A stretch of DNA of 64,000 nt from Adineta vaga (Eukaryota; Animalia; Rotifera), in the NCBI GenBank assembly GCA_021613535.1, contig CP075497.1, positions 9,820,585 to 9,884,584 of the forward strand, written 5' to 3'. Positions 11,529-59,500 of the stretch are shown piece by piece. The notes beneath the pieces are model-generated. The model was not told the origin of the DNA. It worked only from the letters and a program-made list of their open reading frames with translations, and ran no database searches. Position 1 is the first letter of the stretch. Each line of letters starts with the position of its first letter. The translations under genes and the position numbers were made by a program.

Positions 11529-13592
11529 TCAATTTGTCTGTTCACCTCGACAGATCGGACATCGAGTTGATGTCTAAAAAATAAGAATAAAAATCATGTT
11601 TATACATATGTTAGAAATAAAGAAATGAAATAGGCTGGTACCTTAAGCCATGGATCAATGCATTCACTATGGAAGAAGTGTTTGCATCGTAGATGTTTTA
11701 ATTTCTCGCCACCGATATATTCACTCAAACATACGGCACATTTATCATCAGCTTGAATATGTGTACAAGATTTTGTATAGATCATTGTTGGTAATCGTTC
11801 AAGTTCACTATCAGTTAGACCAACGACAGGTGTTTCATCGGGAATCGTTAGATCGAAAAAGTCCTAGATACAAACAGAAGATTATAGAAAAAGAGTTATT
11901 CATAGAAAAAAAAATGAGAAAACTTACACCAAATTGAATACTAAATGCAGCTGGTAATGAAAATATTTCATGACCAGGTGACATCCAGGCATAAGCAATT
12001 AAATCAATTGATGCTGTTGGTGGATGATGATGATGATGAAAATGATTATGAGTATCACTGTATGATGCGGCATGTGCATCAATGACACGACTAGAAAAGT
12101 TTTCAAAGACAGAAGAGAGTTACATTTTTGTTTCATGAAAAGATGGTGAATGGTAATACATACTGAAGTAGATCAGTAAGAAATGAAGGTGAAGGTCGTT
12201 GATGCAAATGAGTAGTCATCGATGTTCGATGAAAGAGTGGACCACGTTGTGGTGGCGTGGATTCGAATGGTATTCCACTTCGATGGTGGTGCTGCTGATG
12301 ATGATGATGAGGAGAAGGAAGATGATTTATTTGTTGTGTATAGGAAGAACGAGGAGGAGGTATTGGTTGACGACGAGGTAAAGCAACAGGTGGTGATTCA
12401 AGTAAAAATTGTTGATGATCAGGAGAATGGTATATATTACGAGGCTGTGCAGATGATGATGACGATGATGATAATGAGGGTTGTTGAATAGGAAGATGAT
12501 GGAGATCGTAATGTGTATTGGTATTATTGATATTATGTGCGTGTTCAATTCGATTTCGTTGCATCGGTTGTGTGCGTTGATCGAATGGTCGAGAAAGAGA
12601 AGGAATATTATCAATGTATGGTGTTCGGGGTATAGGATTTGGTTGTGGTTGTACATATCGATGATTTCTATACAATACAGATAAGAATATAGATTTTTAA
12701 AACAAAATTTTATACGTAAAGAAAAAAAATGAAATACTTACGTGTACGGTTGATAATGATGATGACTAGATGATCGATACTGTTGATTTTGTAGTTGCTG
12801 TTGAGAATGTGATGTATTCTCTTGTGAACGATGATTTGTTCGATCATTTTCATTATTAACTCCTTCATGTCTCGAACGCTTACGTTCATGATGATGATAT
12901 GACTGTGACGACTGAGATGCAGATGTACTAATCGCTGATGAACGTTGCCGTTTCGTATGATTATGATTATTATTGTTATTATGAGATGATCGTTGTGTTA
13001 TTGGATTGTTATTGTCTCGTTCATCGTCAAACCATGGTGGATGTCGTGTAAATGACGCTGCCGATGGACTTTCTAAACGATAATGACGATGATGTGGAGC
13101 TGATGCTGTTGTATTTGCTGCTGCCTAAAAAATAGTGACATTGATTAATTTATTTTAGACGAAATGTTACTAAAGAATAAAAAAAGAGTTTTTTTTACCG
13201 TCACAACATTCAATGGTAATAAAGGTCTAGTTGGTTCTTCTTCATTTGATTGCAAATAATGAATATGACATGATGGTTGAGATTCATCCCTCTGATGTAC
13301 ATGCGGATTCGTAGTTGTTTCACGATTTGATGAAAGTGACGAAGATTCAACTGTTTGACGATGAGGTGGATATTGAAAATAGGAAAAATCATTTTGTGTT
13401 GATAGAGACTGAGATGCAGAAGATGTTGTTGGTGGATGTATACAAGATAATGGATCTGTTAATTGCCAAGATGAACTATCTGATGATGTATCATTCGGTT
13501 GTGTTGTAGGATAAGAAACAAAGTCACACATTTGTAAAGATACACGATGACGAGATGGTATAAATGGACGGTTAGAATATTGGCGAGACATG
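11529..13592 (-). CDS. RING-H2 E3 ubiquitin ligase, RNF38/RNF44-like. The Pro/His/Ser-rich N-terminus and the C-terminal RING-H2 are split by an intron.
   Basis: The RING-H2 reads CAVCLSEYIGGEKLKHLRCKHFFHSECIDPWLK then (intron) TSTRCPICRGEQTN*. The long His/Pro/Ser low-complexity N-terminal exons (MSRQYSNRPFIPSRH...) match the RNF38/44 architecture. Confidence 0.75.
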
Positions 13593-14077
13593 TAATTCTG
13601 GATATGAATTAAGTACAAAAGACAAATAAATCTGTACAACCTTCCTGAATACTTCGTTCGATGTAATCAAAGAAGAAGAAGAAAGGCTATAAAGAGGAAG
13701 GTGAAAGAATGCAATGCACGTGGTGTCCATGATGTCGAATTGAATGACAAAATCGACCAATCATTTTTTAGCTATTCTTCATCATAACAATGCAAACTAG
13801 TGACCTCTAATGATCTTTCAAATGTCATTCTTTACTCATATAAATATGTACGATTTAAATATGTAGACGTGATACAAAGCATTTTTTCGTCATATGTTTA
13901 TAATAATACACTCGTGTAAGTTTCTTTTTTTTTGTTTCAATTTATTTCAAATATCACATTGTATGGAGAACATAGAATGATGCAGAAAAAGAATGTGTAG
14001 AATGATAATTTTAGTCAATTTATTCGAGTAAACGAAAAATAAGGATCAGTAATCACGACTGAAGAATGACGAACACA

Positions 14078-14629
14078 TCATTGTAAAAATGGGAATCGTG
14101 GATGTGATAAATGTTGTTCTCTTGAATTATCAATTTCTTGATTTGATGCGACTGAACAAGTTTCATCTACTTGACATGATTCTAAAATGAAATGTGTAAT
14201 ATAAACATATGGTAAAATTGTTTATCAATATAAACTTTGCATACCTGTACCACAGCATACGCCATGTGCAGCACATCGACCATTTGGTACAGTTGAACAA
14301 ACGGAAGAATTGATTACACATGGTGTAAGATTACGATTTTCATTTGAACATTGACGAGCATCCGATGGATGACCAATACGACAAGCGAAATCAGTACAAC
14401 AGATTGATGGACCAAAACATTGACCACCTAATCCACAACGTGGACACTAAATTTAGAAAAAAATTATATTTATTTTAGAATATATTTTATTATTGTCTAA
14501 CTTGATGATTATGTAAATTATTATCTAAATCTGAACTTCGTTTACCACCAATTGGACAATTAGTAATATAACATGCATGATTAAATTGTAAGAGAGCAAC
14601 AAAAAGAATCAAGAAGATAAATGTATGCA
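14078..14629 (-). CDS. Vasopressin/oxytocin-type neuropeptide-neurophysin precursor. Three exons on the minus strand: 14501..14629, 14245..14446 and 14078..14181. The predicted mature peptide is CYITNCPIG-amide.
   Basis: The precursor opens with the signal peptide MHTFIFLILFVALLQFNHA. Directly after it come CYITNCPIG and the GKR amidation/dibasic site. A neurophysin domain with exactly 14 Cys follows: CPRCGLGGQCFGPSICCTDFACRIGHPSDARQCSNENRNLTPCVINSSVCSTVPNGRCAAHGVCCGTESCQVDETCSV. Intron donors are gttaga and gtatgc; acceptors are tttag and ttttag. Confidence 0.85.
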
Positions 14630-15268
14630 TGATATCGGAATAACTAGAATAATATCGAATGAATATAAAATAATATTCAAACTTCAAAGGCCTACCTTGC
14701 TACTGTATATGAAATGAGAGTTGAAGGACGAAGTTTTCTTCAGTGATGTAAAATAGAAATAAAATGAAAAATGAGACTTCGAAGGTGATTTATAAAGCAT
14801 GAAGAAACAGTGGGTAGTAAAATATAATGCATTATGTGTTAAACTAGACCAGTCTAGAAAGTATTAAAATATAATATTGTTATCACATTGAATGTGTGAA
14901 TTGTCCTATTTTGAGTACTAACACATTTTCGACGAGAAATTTGAATAAAAATAATTGTTTCCGTGGGTGTGGTAATAAATTTTTTACATATTGTTATACA
15001 CACAATGAGTTAATGAAAAGAATTCATTCGGATATTCTTCATGTAAATGTCGTCAATAATTATTTGATCATTCTTATTATGACCGATAGTGAAAGATGAA
15101 AAGGACTTTCTCAAATCATAGATATTTATTTTGACATTATTTAAAATCATTCGAAACTGTTTTATCACACATGCACAATAAATTAAAAACAACATTGACA
15201 TATTTTTATGACTATAGAAAGGAAAACACCGCGAAGCAAAAACGATTTTACTGCTAAAAGATACAATA

Positions 15269-17980
15269 TTAATCGTCAGCATTCTCTTCATTCTCTTGAT
15301 TTTCCACTGTAGTTGTTGGTGTTGCAGAATCTTCACCAAGTAATTGACATAATTCGTTAAAACGCGACTGAATTTCTGGAACGCCAGCTAATTGAGCTTC
15401 CAATCGTTCTTTTTCACCTTTTAATGTTAAAAGTTTTTCGGTATTGAGTACTTCAAATTTCCATTTACCATCACCGTCAAATTGAAGTAAATGTGTATGA
15501 TAAGCCCTTGAAAATTGAAAGACAAATCTTTACTGAGAATAATTATTAATAATTTACTTACCATAGCGATGGTCGATGTGTAATTGTCAACAAGGATATT
15601 CCGAATCCTTTGGCTCGTTCATATATTTTACCTTCTACATCAATTGATACAGCACTTGTACATTCATCCAATAGAGCATAACGTGGTCGATGATAAAAGA
15701 TTCGTGCTAAACCAAGACGTTGTTTTTCCCCACCAGATAAAATATCCTTCCAATCACGTTCAGCATTTAAACCACCTTCACGTTGAACGATGTATTGTAA
15801 TTCAACATGATTTAGAACTTCCATTAGTTTTGTATCATCAACAAATGTATTGTCAACAGTATGTGGATAAATGATTTGATCACGTAATGTTCCAGGACAC
15901 ATATAAGGTCGTTGAGGAATGAGAAAGAAATTCGATGGATTTGGTCGATGAAGACGTCCAGAATAGATAGGCCATAGACCTCGAACAATACGAAAAAATG
16001 ATGATTTACCACAACCATTTGGTCCAGTGATAAGTACATGCATAGCCGGTGTAATCTAAAGAACAAAAAGGTCGAATCTTCTATTAAAAACAGTAGATAT
16101 TTGTTGTACTTTTAATGAAAGACTGTCAACAATAACATCACCATTGGGTGTAATAATTGGTACATTCTCGGCAATAATATCTTCATCAGATTCAATTATT
16201 CGACCTTCTATTAAAACGAAAGAGAACATGATCGAACTTGCTCTTTTCTACAATGATCTACACTGACCTGGACGTTGATTGACAGTAACCTTTCGTTTGG
16301 CAATTGTTGATGACGAATGTTCATTAGGATTTTCATTTGGTTCTACTAAAGCTCGTTGATAATGTTCATGTGCACAATCATCAAAAACATGAAGCATAGT
16401 ATAAACTCGATCTGTATGTCCTGCAAGTTCTGCAATCTAGATATAAAAACAATTTCTTCTTTAGTATTATCCATTATTGCACAATAATTCAATTTTACTT
16501 CTTTATACGATGAAATGATACGTTCGAGTGCATCAGCACCAGATGATAACAAATTTTTACTAACTGTAAACGCTTCTGTACGTGCGCTGATACCAAGTGG
16601 ATCTCCAACTGGATCTAAAAATAAATTTTTCATTCAATATTTATTCATTTCAAAGAAATCGCATTAACCATCGGTTTCTGCTGGACCATCATAGGTAAGA
16701 AAAGGTATAGCAATAAATACCATTCCGCCTAAATATAAAGAGATTTTGCACAAAGCAAAATACTTTTATCTAAACATACATGCATGCCAGAAATATTTCA
16801 TTAAAAACTGTTCAAGCATAATAAACCATAATTTTTTCTTAATAATTAAATTTGTTTGTTCACGTAATTGATCATATAATTTCAAAATCCAGTTTTTCTC
16901 AACCTATTATTATTATTATTATTTTCGTATCTATCTAGTTAATAAATGAAGAAAACGATCAAATGACATACTTGATGACCATCAAAAAAGGCAATTTCTT
17001 CAGCATTTGCAATAACTCTCGTATGTGCAAAACGAAGTACACCTCGTCGTCGTGCTTCTTCGGAAACAAGTTTACCGAATCGAGGTGATAGCTTTCGAAG
17101 TGCCATAAAAGTAACCAAAATAACAGCCATTGTCATGACGGGTACCTCTAAATGAAACGAAGAAAAGAATTTCATGAAGTTGATTGTATCGAATTACCTT
17201 TAAGACCTCGTGCTGAGTGTCGTTGTCGAACCATGGCAACAAGTGACCATGAAATAACAGCAATATCAAAAAATGGCTTAGTTAAATGTGAAAATAGATG
17301 AGTTAAGGTTGATGTAAATGTTTCAATATCATCAGTTAAATTTTGATCTGGTGTCAATAAACGACTATCCAAATTTGATACACGAAAATAGGTTTGATTC
17401 TAAAATTTATTATTTTGTAAACGAAAAAGTGACAAACGAACGTCAGTCTAAAACTTACTTGAAAATAGGCTTCATATGCATGACGTGTTAATTTAGTACG
17501 AAATGCTAGAGCAAGTTTTGATTCAGCATAACGAATTAAACTATTAATAAAACTAGCAGGAATAGAAACACCAACAAAGATACATATTGCACTAAGGAAA
17601 TTACGTGCATTTCGTTGTACTAAAGATTTAACGATAGCACCATCAAGATGTGCTATGTAAACTGATAGGAATGTTCGAGTAATCAATGTTGATAAATGAA
17701 GTATTAATATGAAAAATGAATCACTTTTTAGGTGTGGAATAAGAATACGAATTAATGTTCGAAGTTGATGAAAAAATCGTTTATTGAGTGCTTTACGAAC
17801 TAGTGATGATTGTGACGGTGATGCAGTATCATTAGTAGTGAGTTGCTCTTGTGGAATGATAAGTGCACGTCGTTTTTTCAATAAAATAGATCGACGATAA
17901 CGACGAATAAGATAGGCAATTAATGCAAACGATGATGAAAAAAGTAAAAGTTTTGTTCGACGAGATCTCAGCGAATACAT
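15269..17980 (-). CDS. ABCD: Peroxisomal ABC half-transporter, ABCD1/2/3 (ALDP/PMP70) family. Multi-exon.
   Basis: TM-domain exons give [52 protein letters not shown] and [31 protein letters not shown]. The NBD reads [25 protein letters not shown]...[40 protein letters not shown]...ITHRPSLW. The C-terminus [19 protein letters not shown]...ENADD* has its stop at 15269-15271. Confidence 0.9.
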
Positions 17981-18353: not shown

Positions 18354-20310
18354 TCATTTTTCTCCAGATGAAGAATCACCTATTTGATCACTATTATCAT
18401 AATGACTAATTTGTTGATATTCACTAATAAGATCATTTAAACTTGCTTCTGCTAAACACGAAAAAAGACATTTGTAAATTAATTAAAAAAACATACATAT
18501 GAAAACTAAACTTACCATCAGTAAATTCGATATCATCCATCCTATATATCGAATTCAAAGAAAAAAGTTAAATTAATACATTTTTCTTTGCTATTAATTT
18601 ACCCTTCAGCTGTATACCAATGTATAAATGCTTTCCTTTTATACATAGCACAAAATTGTTGACAAATTTTTTTAAATAATTCTTCAATCGCTGTATTATT
18701 TGCTATAGAAAAAAAAATAACCGGAAATTAGTCTTTGCTATTGACTTTTATTAAGTAGATTATTTTACCAAGAAAAGTACAAGACATTCGGCATCCTCTC
18801 GGTGGAATATCACATACAGCAGTTTTAACATTGTTTGGAATCCATTCAATAAAATATTGAGAATTACGATTTTGTACCTGTAACATTTGTTCATCGATTT
18901 CACGCATTGATAATCGACCACGAAAGACTAGTGCTAATAAAAAACATTCAATATTATTCTATATAAACTGAATATTCGAAATTATGCTAACCAACAGTAA
19001 GATATCGTCCTTGTCTGGGATCTACAGCACACATTACATTTCGAGGATTAAATACTTGATGAACCATGTCCAAAACGGTTGTTGCTCGATAAGATTGACC
19101 ACTTCGTGATGTTAATGGTGCTAAAGATGACATAAAAAAATGTAAACGTGGAAATGGAACCATATTAACAGCGAGTTTTCTTAAATCCGCATTTAGTTGA
19201 CCTAAACATGTCACAAAGAGAGTGAGACGAATGAGGAATAGTGGTATTAGCTGATTTACCAGGAAATCGAAGACAAGTAGTAATACCAGACATAGTGTTA
19301 GCAATCAGATGATTGACTAAAATCAAAATTTTAATATGAATTACGTGATATTTCATAATCCACTACAGACGATCAATCATTGACGGAGTAGGAATTTTAA
19401 GTGACCGAGTACATATTTCATAGAGAGCTTCGTTATCAAAACATATCAACATATCTGTCGATTCAATATGATAATGAGCAGCAAGTAAAGCATTGTATGG
19501 TTCAACGATAGATTCAGATACTTGTGGCGATGGAAAAACACTATAAGCAACAATCATTCCTGAATATAAAAATAATACTACTATCATTTGAATTTGAAAA
19601 TCAACAAAACCATACGATCAGGATACTCTTCACGTAACCGATTTAATACAAGAGAACCAAGTCCAGAACCTGATCCACCACCAATACTTTGCATAATTTG
19701 AAAACCTAGTGAAAAAAAATGATTCTATAGATGTTTAAAATAGTTTGATTATTACCTTGCAAACAATCGGTATTTTCAACTTCTCGACGAACAGTTTCAA
19801 GTAGATAATCAATAGTCTCAGCACCTTCACCATAATATCCTAGAATGAAATATCTTTCACTATAAAATGATATAATATTCTTTGTTAGCAAACCTTTCGC
19901 CCAATTGTTGCCTGCTCCAGCTGTACCAAATACAAAATTATCTGGTCGAAACATTTGACCATAAGATGAAGCACGTACACAATCGATTGGACCCGTCTCA
20001 AGATCACATAAAACTGCTCGAGGAACATATTTACCACCTAAATTAATTATTACTTAGCATTCAGAAGACTTAATAAATGATAATGAAGTTTTTAGTACCT
20101 ATCGCTTCATTAAAGTAGACATTAATCCGTTCTAATTGTATATCAGAATCACCATCATAAATGCCAAGAGGAGAAAGACCATGTTCATTGGCCACAATTT
20201 CCCAAAACTAGAACATGACGAAGATATTTGAGAGTGTCATACCTTCTTATTACTTTTGCTGCGATCTGATTACCACATTGTCCAATGGAGATGTTCACAA
20301 TTTCACGCAT
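18354..20310 (-). CDS. Beta-tubulin, a divergent isotype. Multi-exon, with introns of 46 and 58 bp among others.
   Basis: [19 protein letters not shown] is followed by a 46-bp intron and [10 protein letters not shown]...[13 protein letters not shown]. Further exons give [28 protein letters not shown]...[29 protein letters not shown] then a 58-bp intron and [22 protein letters not shown], then [20 protein letters not shown] and the C-terminus [13 protein letters not shown]...GEK*. Confidence 0.9.
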
Positions 20311-38233: not shown

Positions 38234-39836
38234 ATGATGACGAATAATAATAATATAGAAGATCAACGATGGAAATTATTAGATAAAGAACGATTTCAAA
38301 CATTTTTTGATTCCGATGGTCGTTTGGTGAAAGAACATGAATTTAGAAAAGCTGTTTTCAAAGGTGAGAGGTAGGTCTGAATATTAAATAAATTAATAAT
38401 CAGCATATATGTGAATAATAAAGATTAGCTTTTGTAGAAATATGTATGAGTTACAAGTCATCTTAATTTTTTACCCATTTTGAATACTAGTAATGATTCA
38501 TTTTTAATTATTTAGGCGGTATCAATAGTAATCTTCGGCCGCAAGCATGGAAATATCTTTTTGGTTTCTATCCACCACTTCTTTCTAAAACGTAAGATCA
38601 ACATTTTTGTTCAATTCGTTTTTCATGATTGTTTGTTTTCTCTTCATATTAGAGAACAAGAAACTATTGATGTTGAACGTAAATTATGTTATGATTTTAT
38701 GTGTGAACGATGTGAAAAAGAAATGCCAGAAGAACGTAAATTTGTACATTGACTACTTTTTCATCTTTAATTTTAATGTTACTTTAGTCCGTTCACAATT
38801 ATCGCATCTATCCGCAAATAAAGTTAAAGAACCTCTTAGTCCAAATGAAATATTCTTTTCTATTCAACAACGTATCGAAGCTTATAAACCTAAACTAAAT
38901 TGGAATGAAATGGATCGTCATGTTCGACTTATTGCTAAAGATTTACACCGAACTGATTTTATATCATCGGAAAAACGACCAGATAATTATAATTACGGTC
39001 CATTAACACGTTTACTTGTTGCATTTGCTTCTTATCATCCGAATATCGGTTATTCCCAAGGTATTCTTGTTCTAAATTATACAAAAGACGTGTTTAATAT
39101 TTTATATTTGTTAGGTATGAATGATATGGCTCATTGTTTTCTACATGTATTTTCTTTCAATGAACATGAAGCTTATTTCTGCTTTGCTTATTATATCACA
39201 CAATCGGGCGAACATTTTACAGAAAAAGGTATCGCACATAAAATAAAACAATTGCCGAAACTAGTGGAAATTGTTGATCAATTATTATATGATCGAATAT
39301 TATCACTCAATGTTGAATTATGGACATTTTGTCATCGTATGTACTAATGTTATTGCTCATGATTTAATAATGATTTTTTGATAGGATGGTTATTTTTATG
39401 TTTTCGTCGTGAATTTGCTGAAGAAGAAGATACATTGATATGTTTCGAAGTAGTTTGTAGTCATTTTCTTGAAGAAAATTCATTAGCTGCAGAACGTCTT
39501 CTTCATGATATACAATTGAGACGAGCAGAACAAAAAGGTATCAGTAGTTATTCATCATCAATATCAATGGAAGGACATTCCAAATCGAATGAAGAACTTG
39601 GATGTTCATTCGACTTATTCGTTTGTATTGCAATGATATCATTATTTCGTTCATGTTTATTCGATGCTAATGATGAACTTGAAGCTTTGGAAGCCATTCA
39701 ACAACGTCAAAAAACACTCGATGTTCGACAAGTTTTATCATTAGCAGAACAACTTTTTAAAATATATTGCCTACAAATGACATCAATGACAGCTCCATCC
39801 ACAATTGAAACATCATCTTATGAAATCATTGATTAA
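38234..39836 (+). CDS. TBC-domain Rab GTPase-activating protein, TBC1D15/16/GYP7-like. About 6 exons.
   Basis: The first exons give RWKLLDKERFQTFFDSDGRLVKEHEFRKAVFKG and GGINSNLRPQAWKYLFGFYPP, which carries the TBC Arg-finger context. Later exons give IAKDLHRTDF...YGPLTRLLVAFASYHPNIGYSQG (the YxQ motif), MNDMAHCFLHVF and WLFLCFRREFAEEEDTLICFEVVCSHFL. The stop is at 39834-39836. Confidence 0.8.
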
Positions 39837-43248: not shown

Positions 43249-44025
43249 ATGGCTACTGCATCAGATTCAACTACTCATACCAAAAGTCGCTTTCTGGATG
43301 CTAACAAAGAAGACTTGAAAGAACTGATGCCGTTAAAAAGTTTTGATGATGTTCCTCTTCTCCCATTGGGAGAATCTGTTGAGAAGTTGGACAAGTTGCA
43401 TAAGGATCTTAAGCTTATGATAGATGTTGCTCTTAAGAGATCTAAAGATCCAGCTGACAATCTTAATGAAGACCAGTCAGCCGCTATCTGTCTTTATACA
43501 ATGGAAGGTAATTCACCGGGCTGTAATCTTTACTCACTACTGAATGCGACGCTTCGCAATCCAGATCGAACACAACTCGAATCTTGGTATCCATACTTAA
43601 AACTGATACTAACGGCTCTATATACCTTACCATCGATCAGTACGACAGTTTGGCGAGGAGTACGTAAAGATCTATCCCATAGATATAAACGTGGTGAAGA
43701 TATTACGTGGTGGGCATTTAGTTCGTGCACAACTTTGATTGATGTTTTAGAAGATGAAAAGTTCTTGGGCACATCAGGAGAACGTACACTGTTTGCAATT
43801 GAATGTTGTAGTGGAAAAGAGATTAAACGTCATTCCTATTACTCTTTCGAAAAAGAAGTCTTACTCCTTCCAACTACACATTTGAAAGTACTCGGTCAGT
43901 TCAAATGTCAAAATGATATGTATATTATTCATTTACGTGAAATACCAACACAACCACTTCTCATAAGAAACATATTATGTGAACAACCGAGAAAGCCAAC
44001 TCCCTCTCTACTGCCCATAAGGTAA
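43249..44025 (+). CDS. Mono-ADP-ribosyltransferase of the R-S-EXE (ARTC, C3/cholera-toxin-like) clade. Intronless, 258 aa, no signal peptide.
   Basis: The ORF carries the ordered ART motifs. They are AICLYTMEG..NLYSLLNATLR (YxxxN..LR), TVWRGV (catalytic Arg), WAFSSCTT (STS-type motif) and YSFEKEVLLLP (EXE in the EEEVLIP context). An in-frame TAA sits one codon upstream of the ATG. Coding GC is about 40% against roughly 30% locally. Confidence 0.8.
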   Translation: MATASDSTTHTKSRFLDANKEDLKELMPLKSFDDVPLLPLGESVEKLDKLHKDLKLMIDVALKRSKDPADNLNEDQSAAICLYTMEGNSPGCNLYSLLNATLRNPDRTQLESWYPYLKLILTALYTLPSISTTVWRGVRKDLSHRYKRGEDITWWAFSSCTTLIDVLEDEKFLGTSGERTLFAIECCSGKEIKRHSYYSFEKEVLLLPTTHLKVLGQFKCQNDMYIIHLREIPTQPLLIRNILCEQPRKPTPSLLPIR

Positions 44026-46026: not shown

Positions 46027-47017
46027 TGTAACTCATGAACAATGGACGTCAACAGCACTAACAGTGGCTGGAGGTCATGGATACGGACAGCAACTGAATC
46101 AATTTTCTTACTGCTATGGCATGTGTGTTGACAGTGATGGAGCTGTCCTTATCGCTGATTTAAAAAATCATCGTATCGTGGAATGGAAATTTGGTGCAAC
46201 CAGTGGCCAAATAATCGCAGGAGGGCATGGAGAAGGAAGTGAACCGGATCAATTGAATAAACCAACAGATGTCATTTTCGATCACGAAAGAAACAGTATT
46301 CTGATTTGTGACAGGGGAAACCGACGAGTTGTACGCTGGCCCCGCCAAAATGGAAAGAGATATGAAATGGTAATCGAAAATATCGATTGTGGGAATCTAG
46401 CAATGGATAATTATGGTTTTCTCTATGTCACGGACACGCAGAAAGATAAAATAAGGCGATATCAACTGGTAGGAAACAGTTTTCGCTCAGATTATAAAAC
46501 CGTAGCAGGTGGTAATGAAGAAGGTAAAGGTCTCAACCAATTCAATGGACCAGCTTGTTTGTTTGTTGATTGCAAACAAACGGTATACGTTTCAGACAAA
46601 GGAAATAATCGTGTGATGAAATGGGTGAAAGATGCGACGGAAGGAATTGTTGTGGCCGGTGGTGAAGGAAAGGGAAATGGGTTGAGGCAACTGAATAATC
46701 CTCTAGGATTGTTCGTCGATTTAAAAGATAATATCTATATTGTTGATAGTGGAAATCATCGGATTGTATGCTGGAGCAAAAATTCCGACGTTCGTGTAAT
46801 TCTAGGAGGAAATTATAGTAGAAATTTAGAGCACGGTTTGAATGGCCCTACAAGTTTGGCAGTTGATAGTTTTGGTAATCTTTATATCTATGAATCTGAA
46901 AATCATCGCGTTCAACGGTTCGCTGTCAAGAGTGTATCCAATCCACAAGCTAATATTGTACCGAGTAAGGAAAATGTGTGGTTTAAGAAATTTGGAGTTG
47001 ATAGAAGAGTAATATAA
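46027..47017 (+). CDS. NHL-repeat six-bladed beta-propeller protein (paralog 1). This is the main exon; a short 5' exon is inferred but not located.
   Basis: Six NHL repeats carry G..G.G..QLN.P.gl.vD and blade-terminal motifs HRIVEW, RRVVRW, IRRYQL, NRVMKW, HRIVCW and HRVQRF. The reading frame is open upstream to a strong acceptor (ttttttcttcctcgctctag at 46026) with no in-frame ATG, which implies an upstream exon. Confidence 0.75.
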
Positions 47018-48142
47018 AGCAAGTATTGAGACGTTAAGGAATTCTTTTCTGATTCAAAAAGGTCCGATACAATTAAAATTCTATTTTGAATAATTACAAA
47101 TCCATGTTTTAATGGGACGATACATTTTTCCACCTCCATATCTATGGCAAGTATTGCAGTATTAGACGTAGAGTTCTGTTCAACGGACATCATGGATCGC
47201 AGTAAAGCTGCCTCATTAAAACGCGCAATGATCCAACTTTTAAGTGTGTTGTATCGTTGATATAGTAAGCCTAAAATACACGCTCTCTTGAGTAAAAAAA
47301 TAAAAGCAATCCTACTATTACACATGAATTGTATATCTCATCATTGTCAAAAAATAATGTTTCTAACCATAAAACTTAGTAAAACTACCACTGTTGTAGG
47401 CATTATATAGCAATGCATTAAGTAAGTATATCGAGATTTAACAGTTAGTTCAAATACATATATACTCTATCATGGGAATAGAATATGTATCAATTATAAA
47501 CAGTTCATATTAGCAGTATGGCTAGTTTCCATTAGATCGAACTCGATCATATACGTGGTTCGTATTTGATTTTGAAATGAGTATCAATCGAAAATATCTT
47601 ATGAACAGATTTCATTCTTTTCTCCACTAGCCGCCAGTTTTCGTTGTAGAAAGCATCAATTGTAATCGTCGATACTCCAGAGAATAGAATGCTCTTGGTA
47701 AGATGCCACAGTAAAATTGTGTTGGAAATTGCCAAAAATGATGCATTTCTTATCATCTTTCCAGGCACGTTACTTCAGCTATTGTAAAACAGTCTGAAAA
47801 TAACTTTTACATGTAAGCTAAGTTCGAAAAAGTTAATAATATTAGTCATATTAGACTTGAATTAAATTAAATTAAATTATGAGTTACAATTTACGTTAAA
47901 GTACCTAAAATAATCAAATAGTGGTTTTGAGTTTTATATGAAACTCCATTGATTGTTTGTTTGTTTGCAGTTATAGATATTTTCTATTTAAATTCTTTCT
48001 GATCGTATCTACCAACCTAAACCATTATTCGTTAAAATGATATATGAGTAAACATTGAATGATTGTCAAACGCGAAAAAAATTGTTTCTATTCAGCAAAT
48101 AAACATTCATTCTCTATTCGATACGTATTCCTTCTTCTTTGC

Positions 48143-49067
48143 AGATCCAACGCCTAAAGTACCTTCTATTAAATGGAAATCACTTGGAGTCACAGTAGCT
48201 GGAGGACATGGTTCTGGTAGCCAATTGAACCAACTTAACCAATGTTATGGTCTCTTTGTCGACGACGATGGAAATATTCTGATCGCTGATAGTGGTAACC
48301 ATCGAATTGTGGAATGGAAACCTGGTGCAACGAATGGGCAAGTAATAGCTGGTGGAAAAGGAAAAGGAGCCAATATGAATCAGTTGAATTGTCCAACATC
48401 TATTGTTGTCGATAAAAACACAAATAGTCTCCTCATATGTGATTCACATAATCGTCGAATTGTTAGATGGCCACGCCGACAAGGTCAAGTAGGATGTACA
48501 GTTGTAGCTAATATCGATTGTTATGGATTAGCTATGGGCAAAGGAGGTTGTCTGTATGTCACAGACATTGAGAAGAACGAAGTTAGGTGTTATCAGTTGA
48601 AGCAGAACTATTCAGTCCTGACTGTAACTCGCGTGGCAGGTGGAAATGGAAAAGGGGACAATCTTAATCAACTGGATCGTCCTGATTACCTCTTTGTCGA
48701 TCAAGATGATACGATATTTATATCGGATACAGACAATCATCGTGTTATGAAATGGACGAAGGGTAAAAATCAAGGTGTTATTGTTGCTGGAGGTAAAGGC
48801 GCTGGGAATAATCTCGAGCAATTATGTCAACCTACTGGGTTGTTCGTTAATTCATTCGGTACGATATATGTTGCAGACTCTTCAAACCATCGTGTGACAC
48901 GATGGCATGGTAAACAATCAGACTTAATTGCTGACGGAACTATTGATGAAAACGGAAAAAATCACCCGTTCCATCCCGAGGGTTTGGCCGTTGATCGACA
49001 TGATAATTTGTATGTAGCTGATTGGAAAAATCATCGAGTTCTACGGTTCGCAGTTAGATCAGAATAA
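48143..49067 (+). CDS. NHL-repeat six-bladed beta-propeller protein (paralog 2). Main exon; a 5' exon is inferred.
   Basis: This copy is roughly 50% identical to the upstream paralog. It reads AGGHGSGSQLNQLNQCYGLFVDDDGNILIADSGNHRIVEWKPG..., with HRIVEW, RRIVRW, VRCYQL, HRVMKW, HRVTRW and HRVLRF. The acceptor is ttccttcttctttgcag at 48142. Confidence 0.75.
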
Positions 49068-58951: not shown

Positions 58952-59500
58952 ATGTTGTTGAATATATTCTTGAAAAAACGTTTTCTACATGGAAGAGCTG
59001 TATCAACAATTGAATTGACACGAAATGCTATTGCAAATAAACCACTTCAATGGAATGATTTAATCCAATGGCTACAAGGTGGACAAAAAACGTTACTTTG
59101 GCGAGATGAACAATGTGCTGAACGATATATTCAACATCAAAAATTAGTTTCAAGAGATTATCGATCAATAAATGATTTTATTCGTATACATTATCTTAAA
59201 TGGAATTTTGATATCGATAAAAAGACTGAAAAACGTATTGCTATTTCAAGTTCAAATTCAATTAAAGAACCATTATTAACTCCCAATGATTTTCCATATT
59301 ATTTAGTTTCAGGAATTCAACATTGGGTTATATGGTGTGATCCAATACCGAAAATACCTGAAGAAATTATTGAAAAGATTATTGCAAAAAAATTTCCCTA
59401 TGAAAAATTTGATAGTCTTAGTTTTGTTAATCCACCACGTTTGAGATCTGTTTCTGATGTCTTTCATGCACATGTGTTTACACGAAAGAAAAATGAATAA
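58952..59500 (+). CDS. Small intronless conserved-looking protein of 182 aa, DUF3605-like. The family assignment is tentative.
   Basis: A single ORF contains IQHWVIWCDP and FVNPPRLRSVSDVFHAHVF. From memory these resemble HW(V/I)LW and NP..R.SV..HxHV motifs of a fungal/eukaryotic DUF family. No AG acceptor lies near the ATG. Confidence 0.45.
   Translation: MLLNIFLKKRFLHGRAVSTIELTRNAIANKPLQWNDLIQWLQGGQKTLLWRDEQCAERYIQHQKLVSRDYRSINDFIRIHYLKWNFDIDKKTEKRIAISSSNSIKEPLLTPNDFPYYLVSGIQHWVIWCDPIPKIPEEIIEKIIAKKFPYEKFDSLSFVNPPRLRSVSDVFHAHVFTRKKNE

Follow-up and report, generated by a model that had tools for sequence, protein, structure and literature searches.

A stretch of Adineta vaga DNA 64,000 nucleotides in length (the window, from contig CP075497.1) contains a gene for a vasopressin/oxytocin (VP/OT)-type neuropeptide precursor on its minus strand. 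This gene is very probably the A. vaga ortholog of a bdelloid VP/OT-type precursor gene and one of two paralogs in this degenerate tetraploid. The signal peptide, predicted nonapeptide (CYITNCPIG), Gly-Lys-Arg processing site, 14-Cys neurophysin domain, and three coding exons expected of the family are all present, in agreement with the family assignment made in a first-pass annotation of this DNA. Sequence support for a VP/OT-type gene is far beyond chance, as seen from the match to the neurophysin profile PF00184, the matches to bovine neurophysins, and identity to a GenBank protein. Its presence in the reference bdelloid genome confirms that Rotifera have kept the ligand side of VP/OT signaling.

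Gene structure

The region 13700–15000 of the window was read, and its segments were spliced by script. The gene occupies 14078–14630 and is composed of three exons bounded by GT..AG splice sites. Its features, in window positions, are as follows.

14502..14630, minus strand: coding exon 1 (129 nt, amino acids 1–43), with the signal peptide, nonapeptide, Gly-Lys-Arg, and neurophysin linker
14574..14630, minus strand: signal peptide, amino acids 1–19 (MHTFIFLILFVALLQFNHA), with the hydrophobic core FIFLILFVALL
14547..14573, minus strand: predicted nonapeptide CYITNCPIG, amino acids 20–28
14538..14546, minus strand: Gly-Lys-Arg, amino acids 29–31, predicted amidation donor and dibasic cleavage site
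14447..14501, minus strand: intron 1 (55 nt, GT..AG, GTTAGA...TTTAG), phase 0, between Gln43 and Cys44
14245..14446, minus strand: coding exon 2 (202 nt), with codons 44–110 and the first base of codon 111
14182..14244, minus strand: intron 2 (63 nt, GT..AG, GTATGC...TTTAG), phase 1, in the Glu111 codon
14078..14181, minus strand: coding exon 3 (104 nt), with the end of neurophysin, a 25-amino acid acidic tail, and the TGA stop codon (14080–14078)

The first ATG of the exon 1 open reading frame is at 14630–14628, and the GT donor follows at 14501. The introns are required, because the unspliced exon 1 frame reaches a stop after four intron codons (...HQVRQ, then stop). Exon 2 encodes the central portion of neurophysin, including 12 of its 14 cysteines, and exon 3 encodes the last two, with neurophysin ending at amino acid 119 (14156). 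The spliced coding sequence of 435 nt encodes a 144-amino acid product, in the order MHTFIFLILFVALLQFNHA-CYITNCPIG-GKR-SSDLDNNLHNHQ-CPRCGLGGQCFGPSICCTDFACRIGHPSDARQCSNENRNLTPCVINSSVCSTVPNGRCAAHGVCCGTESCQVDETC-SVASNQEIDNSREQHLSHPRFPFLQ. Past GKR, this comprises a 12-amino acid linker (SSDLDNNLHNHQ), a 76-amino acid Cys-rich core, and the 25-amino acid tail. Of its 16 cysteines, two lie in the nonapeptide and the other 14 in neurophysin. Splicing of 14630–14078 confirmed the minus-strand location and the exon count given in the first-pass annotation, which had set the 5' end one base short (14629, whereas the ATG begins at 14630) and had given the precursor 140 rather than 144 amino acids. The GC content of the gene (~32%) is like that of the remainder of the window. 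Both a GC content of 31.7% and introns of 55–63 nt are in keeping with a bdelloid chromosome.

The product is 100% identical over its full length to GenBank "hypothetical protein I4U23_030361" of A. vaga, an independent annotation with the same exon joins that is placed on a contig of 13.9 Mb. Two contigs from relatives, L001 (JGI 3300032756) and L002 (Logan SRR5248432), have uninterrupted precursor open reading frames. Neither intron 1 (alignment gap at genomic 130–184) nor intron 2 has a counterpart in these contigs. L001 aligns to the window as one ungapped block over both exon junctions, and its only large gaps with respect to the genomic sequence are the two predicted introns. The two contigs appear to provide transcript-like support for the exon joins, from relatives rather than from A. 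vaga, with an RNA origin suggested solely by the absence of introns. In L001 (1–459 and 425–859), the intron-less VP/OT open reading frame is overlapped at its 5' side by the end of another long open reading frame. The encoded protein of the latter is Cys-rich in one region and has a transmembrane segment and a tail of NPxY-like type, but no Pfam match. This overlap is due either to a very compact gene pair or to a chimeric assembly.

Upstream of the ATG (minus strand, region ~14644–14800), a GT occurs at ~14694 (aag/gtaggcc) and an AG at ~14644 (attctag/ttattccgatatcATG), and a comparable pair is found at the equivalent place (~30–105) in L003, a genomic contig from an ENA metagenome. The pair could constitute a candidate 5'-UTR intron or a candidate spliced-leader acceptor. 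The sequence TATAAAT is located at ~14797. The plus strand opposite the gene has only chance open reading frames, all of ≤44 amino acids, and an overlapping plus-strand gene was rejected.

Neurophysin domain

The Pfam profile PF00184 (Hormone_5) matches residues 42–119 over profile positions 1–79 of 79 (56.6 bits, E=4.8e-15), well over the cutoff of 27.2 bits. In a sequence search of the PDB, all matches were chains of bovine neurophysins I and II (6e-12 to 3e-9), the best being to bovine neurophysin II (6e-12), and all cysteines were aligned. An AlphaFold2 model was generated from a 15-sequence alignment of rotifer precursors and fish and bat oxytocin-family precursors. The pLDDT of the model is mostly ~70–84 in the Cys-rich domain, with a dip to <50 at residues 79–84, and is <50 in the hormone and linker (residues 19–41) and in the C-terminal tail. 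A Foldseek search of the PDB with this model identified ten neurophysin structures (target-normalized TM 0.58–0.84) and nothing else below E=1. Eight crystal structures had target-normalized TM values of 0.77–0.84. The predicted domain matches 1npo, 2bn2, 2hnu, and 1jk6 (TM 0.78–0.84; rmsd 1.7–3.4 Å, 81–87 columns), with the best fits having an rmsd of 1.7–1.8 Å over 81 columns. The model suggests that the neurophysin domain has a native-like fold.

Glu79 of the product aligns with Glu47 of bovine neurophysin II (1npo_A), the residue that binds the α-amino group of the hormone in the 1npo structure. Glu79 and all 14 neurophysin cysteines are invariant across the rotifer and vertebrate sequences of the alignment, as are C20, I22, N24, C25, P26, G28, G29, K30, and R31. 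The complete 14-Cys neurophysin noted in the first-pass annotation is hence borne out by the full-length profile match, the PDB matches, the invariant cysteines, and a predicted fold with TM ~0.8.

Orthologs, paralog, and selection

In A. vaga, the window gene has a paralog, I4U23_012818, on another chromosome-scale contig. Its model is truncated N-terminally, and it encodes the same nonapeptide as the window gene. Homologs occur in Adineta steineri, four Rotaria species, and several metagenome or Logan contigs, and every homolog with an N-terminus has either CYITNCPIG-GKR or CFITNCPIG-GKR (CFITNCPIG in three sequences). As read from these sequences, the predicted nonapeptide is conserved across bdelloid genera.

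The closest described relative is Adineta ricciae VP/OT_2 (Aric13180), which like the window gene has CYITNCPIG followed by GKR and a length of 144 amino acids, and which is 78% identical to it. The two also have a tail motif in common (H-L-x-H-x-R-F-x-x-L-Q), reading ...HLPHSRFTLLQ in A. ricciae and ...HLSHPRFPFLQ in A. vaga. Aric13180 differs in belonging to another species of the same genus, and the A. vaga protein is named only "hypothetical protein" in GenBank. The paralog I4U23_012818 is likewise 78% identical to A. ricciae VP/OT_1, and on these identities the four proteins form two orthologous pairs.

Two genomic contigs from an ENA metagenome, L003 and L004, encode a product that is 94% identical to A. 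ricciae VP/OT_2. Both have introns at the same two positions as the window gene, with GT..AG conserved. Intron 1 of L003 differs from that of the window by a 3-nt indel and has lower identity, and the same is true of L004. For intron 2, alignment to L003 and L004 has 12 gap columns and 54% identity with gaps counted as differences. Comparison of the window with L003 by segment gave the following.

Exons: 78–84% identity and no indels (exon 1, no indels; exon 2, 81% identity, no indels)
Introns: 54–67% identity with gaps counted as differences, and indels
Flanks: 50–57% identity over ungapped columns, and indels

Differences from L003 number 20, 14, and 49 at the first, second, and third codon positions, respectively, with a dN/dS of 0.16 (Nei-Gojobori). 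These comparisons show that the VP/OT-type gene is under purifying selection.

With two A. vaga copies encoding an identical nonapeptide, one could be redundant, and the window gene might then be an ohnolog without function, silent or in decay, with only I4U23_012818 in use. However, the open reading frame and all four splice sites of the window gene are intact, dN/dS is low with respect to the A. ricciae-like ortholog, the exons are free of indels, and the same paralog type has also been kept in A. ricciae and A. steineri. We consider a decaying or silent copy to be very improbable, and a pseudogene was rejected on the basis of the dN/dS value and the absence of exon indels with respect to L003.

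VP/OT-type precursors in rotifers

The review by Odekunle and Elphick (2020) states that VP/OT-type signaling "has been lost in rotifers" and treats Rotifera as a whole-phylum loss. Liutkeviciute et al. (2016), considered as a source of this claim, mention rotifers nowhere in their text, and conopressin appears nowhere in the main text of the survey of three Rotaria species by De Oliveira et al. (2019). The claim has already been corrected for other rotifers by the NP-HMMer preprint of 2024 (10.1101/2024.07.20.604414), in which the proteomes of A. ricciae, Rotaria socialis, Didymodactylos carnosus, and Brachionus plicatilis were scanned and whose text reports the first identification of VP/OXT in rotifers. 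The supplementary FASTA of this preprint contains the following precursors.

A. ricciae: VP/OT_1 and VP/OT_2, CYITNCPIG-GKR
R. socialis: VP/OT_1 and VP/OT_2, CYITNCPIG-GKR
B. plicatilis: one precursor, CYITNCPWG

Judging from the precursor sequences, the ligand side of the 2020 statement is evidently wrong. For A. vaga, the GenBank "hypothetical protein" I4U23_030361 gains a name.

Eight bdelloid VP/OT models in the databases are mis-spliced or read through introns, such that neurophysin is truncated or the tail is frameshifted. Faulty models of this sort may be part of the reason why the family was missed in rotifers.

The first-pass annotation described the ligand as unusual and did not recognize it from any described lineage. 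A VP/OT ligand not described before, from a lineage yet to be explored, would be consistent with the GenBank name and with a search of the main texts of searchable papers, in which the string "CYITNCPIG" had no match. The string is present in supplement files only, and the main-text result is misleading as evidence of novelty because the sequence sits there. The A. ricciae and R. socialis precursors in the NP-HMMer supplement already refute the idea of an undescribed ligand, to which we assign very little probability. Neither is the ligand unusual, being one substitution from isotocin and from mesotocin, peptides that the annotation had omitted. There is nothing new in the peptide, the architecture, or the mechanism. 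GenBank already contains the gene under no name of its own, and congeners have a described peptide of identical sequence.

Nonapeptide and predicted processing

The signal peptide was judged by eye and heuristically, as a 19-amino acid hydrophobic leader with Ala at its end. Residues 2–17 form a helix in the AlphaFold2 model. Ala at position –1 of the predicted cleavage site is nearly invariant in the alignment, and every ortholog has a small residue there (Ala, Gly, or Ser). Asn is found at position –3, where it is not classical. CYITNCPIG is an exact fit to Cys1-x-x-x-x-Cys6-Pro7-x-Gly9. The profile for the nine-residue hormone, PF00220, matches residues 20–28 over profile positions 1–9 of 9 with 16.7 bits, just below its cutoff of 17.1. 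GKR is invariant in all 15 aligned sequences. The earlier proposal of a signal peptide directly preceding the hormone is supported by the hydrophobic leader, the conserved small residue at –1, and the predicted helix; that of CYITNCPIG followed by GKR is read directly in the spliced product, with both elements conserved across the alignment.

The small –1 residue, the adjoining Cys1, the invariant GKR, the Cys framework, and Glu79 fit the standard pathway of the family. Signal peptidase would cut after Ala19, exposing Cys1 of the hormone, and a disulfide bond would form between Cys1 and Cys6. A prohormone convertase would cleave after Lys30-Arg31, and a carboxypeptidase would trim the two basic residues. 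Peptidylglycine α-amidating monooxygenase would then convert Gly29 to a C-terminal amide, giving CYITNCPIG-NH2. The calculated monoisotopic mass of this peptide is 979.43 Da (expected [M+H]+ 980.43). Neurophysin would carry the hormone in secretory granules, with Glu79 pairing with its α-amino group, and upon release the peptide would act on a VP/OT-type GPCR. A Pfam scan found no GPCR among 20 of the 24 listed window open reading frames of ≥130 amino acids, and no rotifer VP/OT receptor was found in the literature.

The gene might instead encode a secreted neurophysin-domain protein from whose N-terminus no amidated nonapeptide is freed, with some other processing or active product. Release is deduced here from sequence features, and the Asn at –3 is atypical. 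Against this, Cys20 directly follows a small residue in every ortholog and GKR is invariant from rotifers to vertebrates, which is the constraint expected if the nonapeptide is released. A protein of this alternative kind is very unlikely.

Genomic neighborhood

Exact-sequence look-ups of the two A. vaga proteins gave no record, and the genomic context was read from the window and from contigs of relatives. The following features surround the VP/OT-type gene in the window.

12133–12675 and 13145–13639, minus strand: downstream low-complexity open reading frames rich in Pro, Ser, His, and Gln, with no Pfam match
15269–17980, minus strand: ABCD-type ABC transporter gene (PF06472 and PF00005), directly upstream of the VP/OT-type gene
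18987–19304, 19363–19587, and 19706–19954, minus strand: tubulin gene (PF00091, PF03953), three open reading frames that look like exons
38607–39347, plus strand: open reading frame with a RabGAP-TBC domain (PF00566), an ordinary animal gene
43249–44025, plus strand: open reading frame matching NAD:arginine ADP-ribosyltransferase (PF01129; ART family)
46064–47017 and 48063–49067, plus strand: two tandem open reading frames with NHL repeats (PF01436)
58952–59500, plus strand: open reading frame matching DUF3605 (PF12239)

The stop codon in the last exon of the ABCD gene is at ~15269, 638 nt before the VP/OT ATG. In L002 (1–2593), an intron-less ABCD open reading frame of 686 amino acids, with the C-terminal motif NELCQLLG as in the window, is located 157 nt before the intron-less VP/OT open reading frame. 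The synteny of ABCD and VP/OT is conserved, since L002 carries both in the same order. This two-gene contig may represent a read-through or dicistronic transcript, or an assembly join. On the downstream side, the stretch ~13700–13860 is conserved in L003 (960–1161), which suggests the start of a next gene and a conserved gene order.

A foreign gene, whether horizontally transferred or a contaminant, has as its sole point in favor the general frequency of horizontal acquisition in bdelloids and is scarcely credible, as the family is metazoan, the introns are short and of bdelloid type, the GC content is like that of the window, the gene is situated between ordinary animal genes (ABCD transporter and tubulin) in a neighborhood conserved in a relative, and a homolog occurs in the monogonont Brachionus.

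The assignment as one of two bdelloid VP/OT-type paralogs can be extended, tentatively, to a complete bdelloid VP/OT system. This would consist of two CYITNCPIG-amide ohnologs and a receptor, would serve water balance in and out of anhydrobiosis, and would possibly involve co-transcription with the ABCD gene. What the data show is ligand genes that are intact, constrained, and syntenic with an ABCD gene, and we regard the complete system with this function as fairly unlikely. The role in water balance would be the ancestral antidiuretic one, by analogy with platytocin. An antidiuretic role has been shown for platytocin in marine flatworms.

Comparison with known VP/OT-type precursors

Intron 1 precedes the first neurophysin Cys, and intron 2 precedes Glu-Ser-Cys. 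These positions, like the 202-nt length of exon 2, presumably coincide with those of mammalian AVP and OXT, and such agreement would argue for vertical descent. Three coding exons are the family norm outside cephalopods, and invertebrates typically have a single VP/OT gene (Odekunle and Elphick, 2020). By contrast, A. vaga has two paralogous precursor genes and one identical peptide, as do A. ricciae and Rotaria.

The second bdelloid paralog, represented by I4U23_012818, A. ricciae VP/OT_1, and A. steineri P0008, agrees with the window gene in its nonapeptide (though CFITNCPIG in P0008), GKR, and 14-Cys neurophysin. It differs in its sequence, being ~60–64% identical, and in its shorter tail, which is without the HPRFPFLQ-type ending. 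The peptide of the monogonont rotifer B. plicatilis, CYITNCPWG, is one residue off (Trp8), with GKR and neurophysin present, but the precursor is only 38% identical to the window product and is extended at its C-terminus by a long basic segment.

Among vertebrates, teleost isotocin (CYISNCPIG) has the same precursor architecture and differs from the rotifer peptide only at position 4. Tetrapod mesotocin is CYIQNCPIG. It likewise differs at position 4 alone, and its precursor architecture is also the same. Precursors of the isotocin and mesotocin type are ~38–40% identical to the window product, with all 14 neurophysin cysteines aligned. In rotifers, the loop that follows the second Cys is two residues shorter than its vertebrate counterpart (Gly-Gly-Lys/Arg-Gly). 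A mammalian oxytocin variant is also one residue from the rotifer peptide: oxytocin-neurophysin 1 of the bat Pteronotus mesoamericanus has CYITNCPVG, with Thr4 and Val8 as opposed to Gln4 and Leu8.

The arthropod peptides CLITNCPRG (inotocin, Tribolium) and CFITNCPPG (the crustacean Daphnia) resemble the rotifer peptide in their Ile3-Thr4-Asn5 core and in the layout of their precursors and differ from it at positions 2 and 8. Position 8 is basic or Pro in these arthropods, whereas the rotifer Ile8 is neutral and oxytocin-like. Two substitutions separate the rotifer peptide from each of oxytocin, vasotocin, inotocin, the Daphnia peptide, and cephalotocin.
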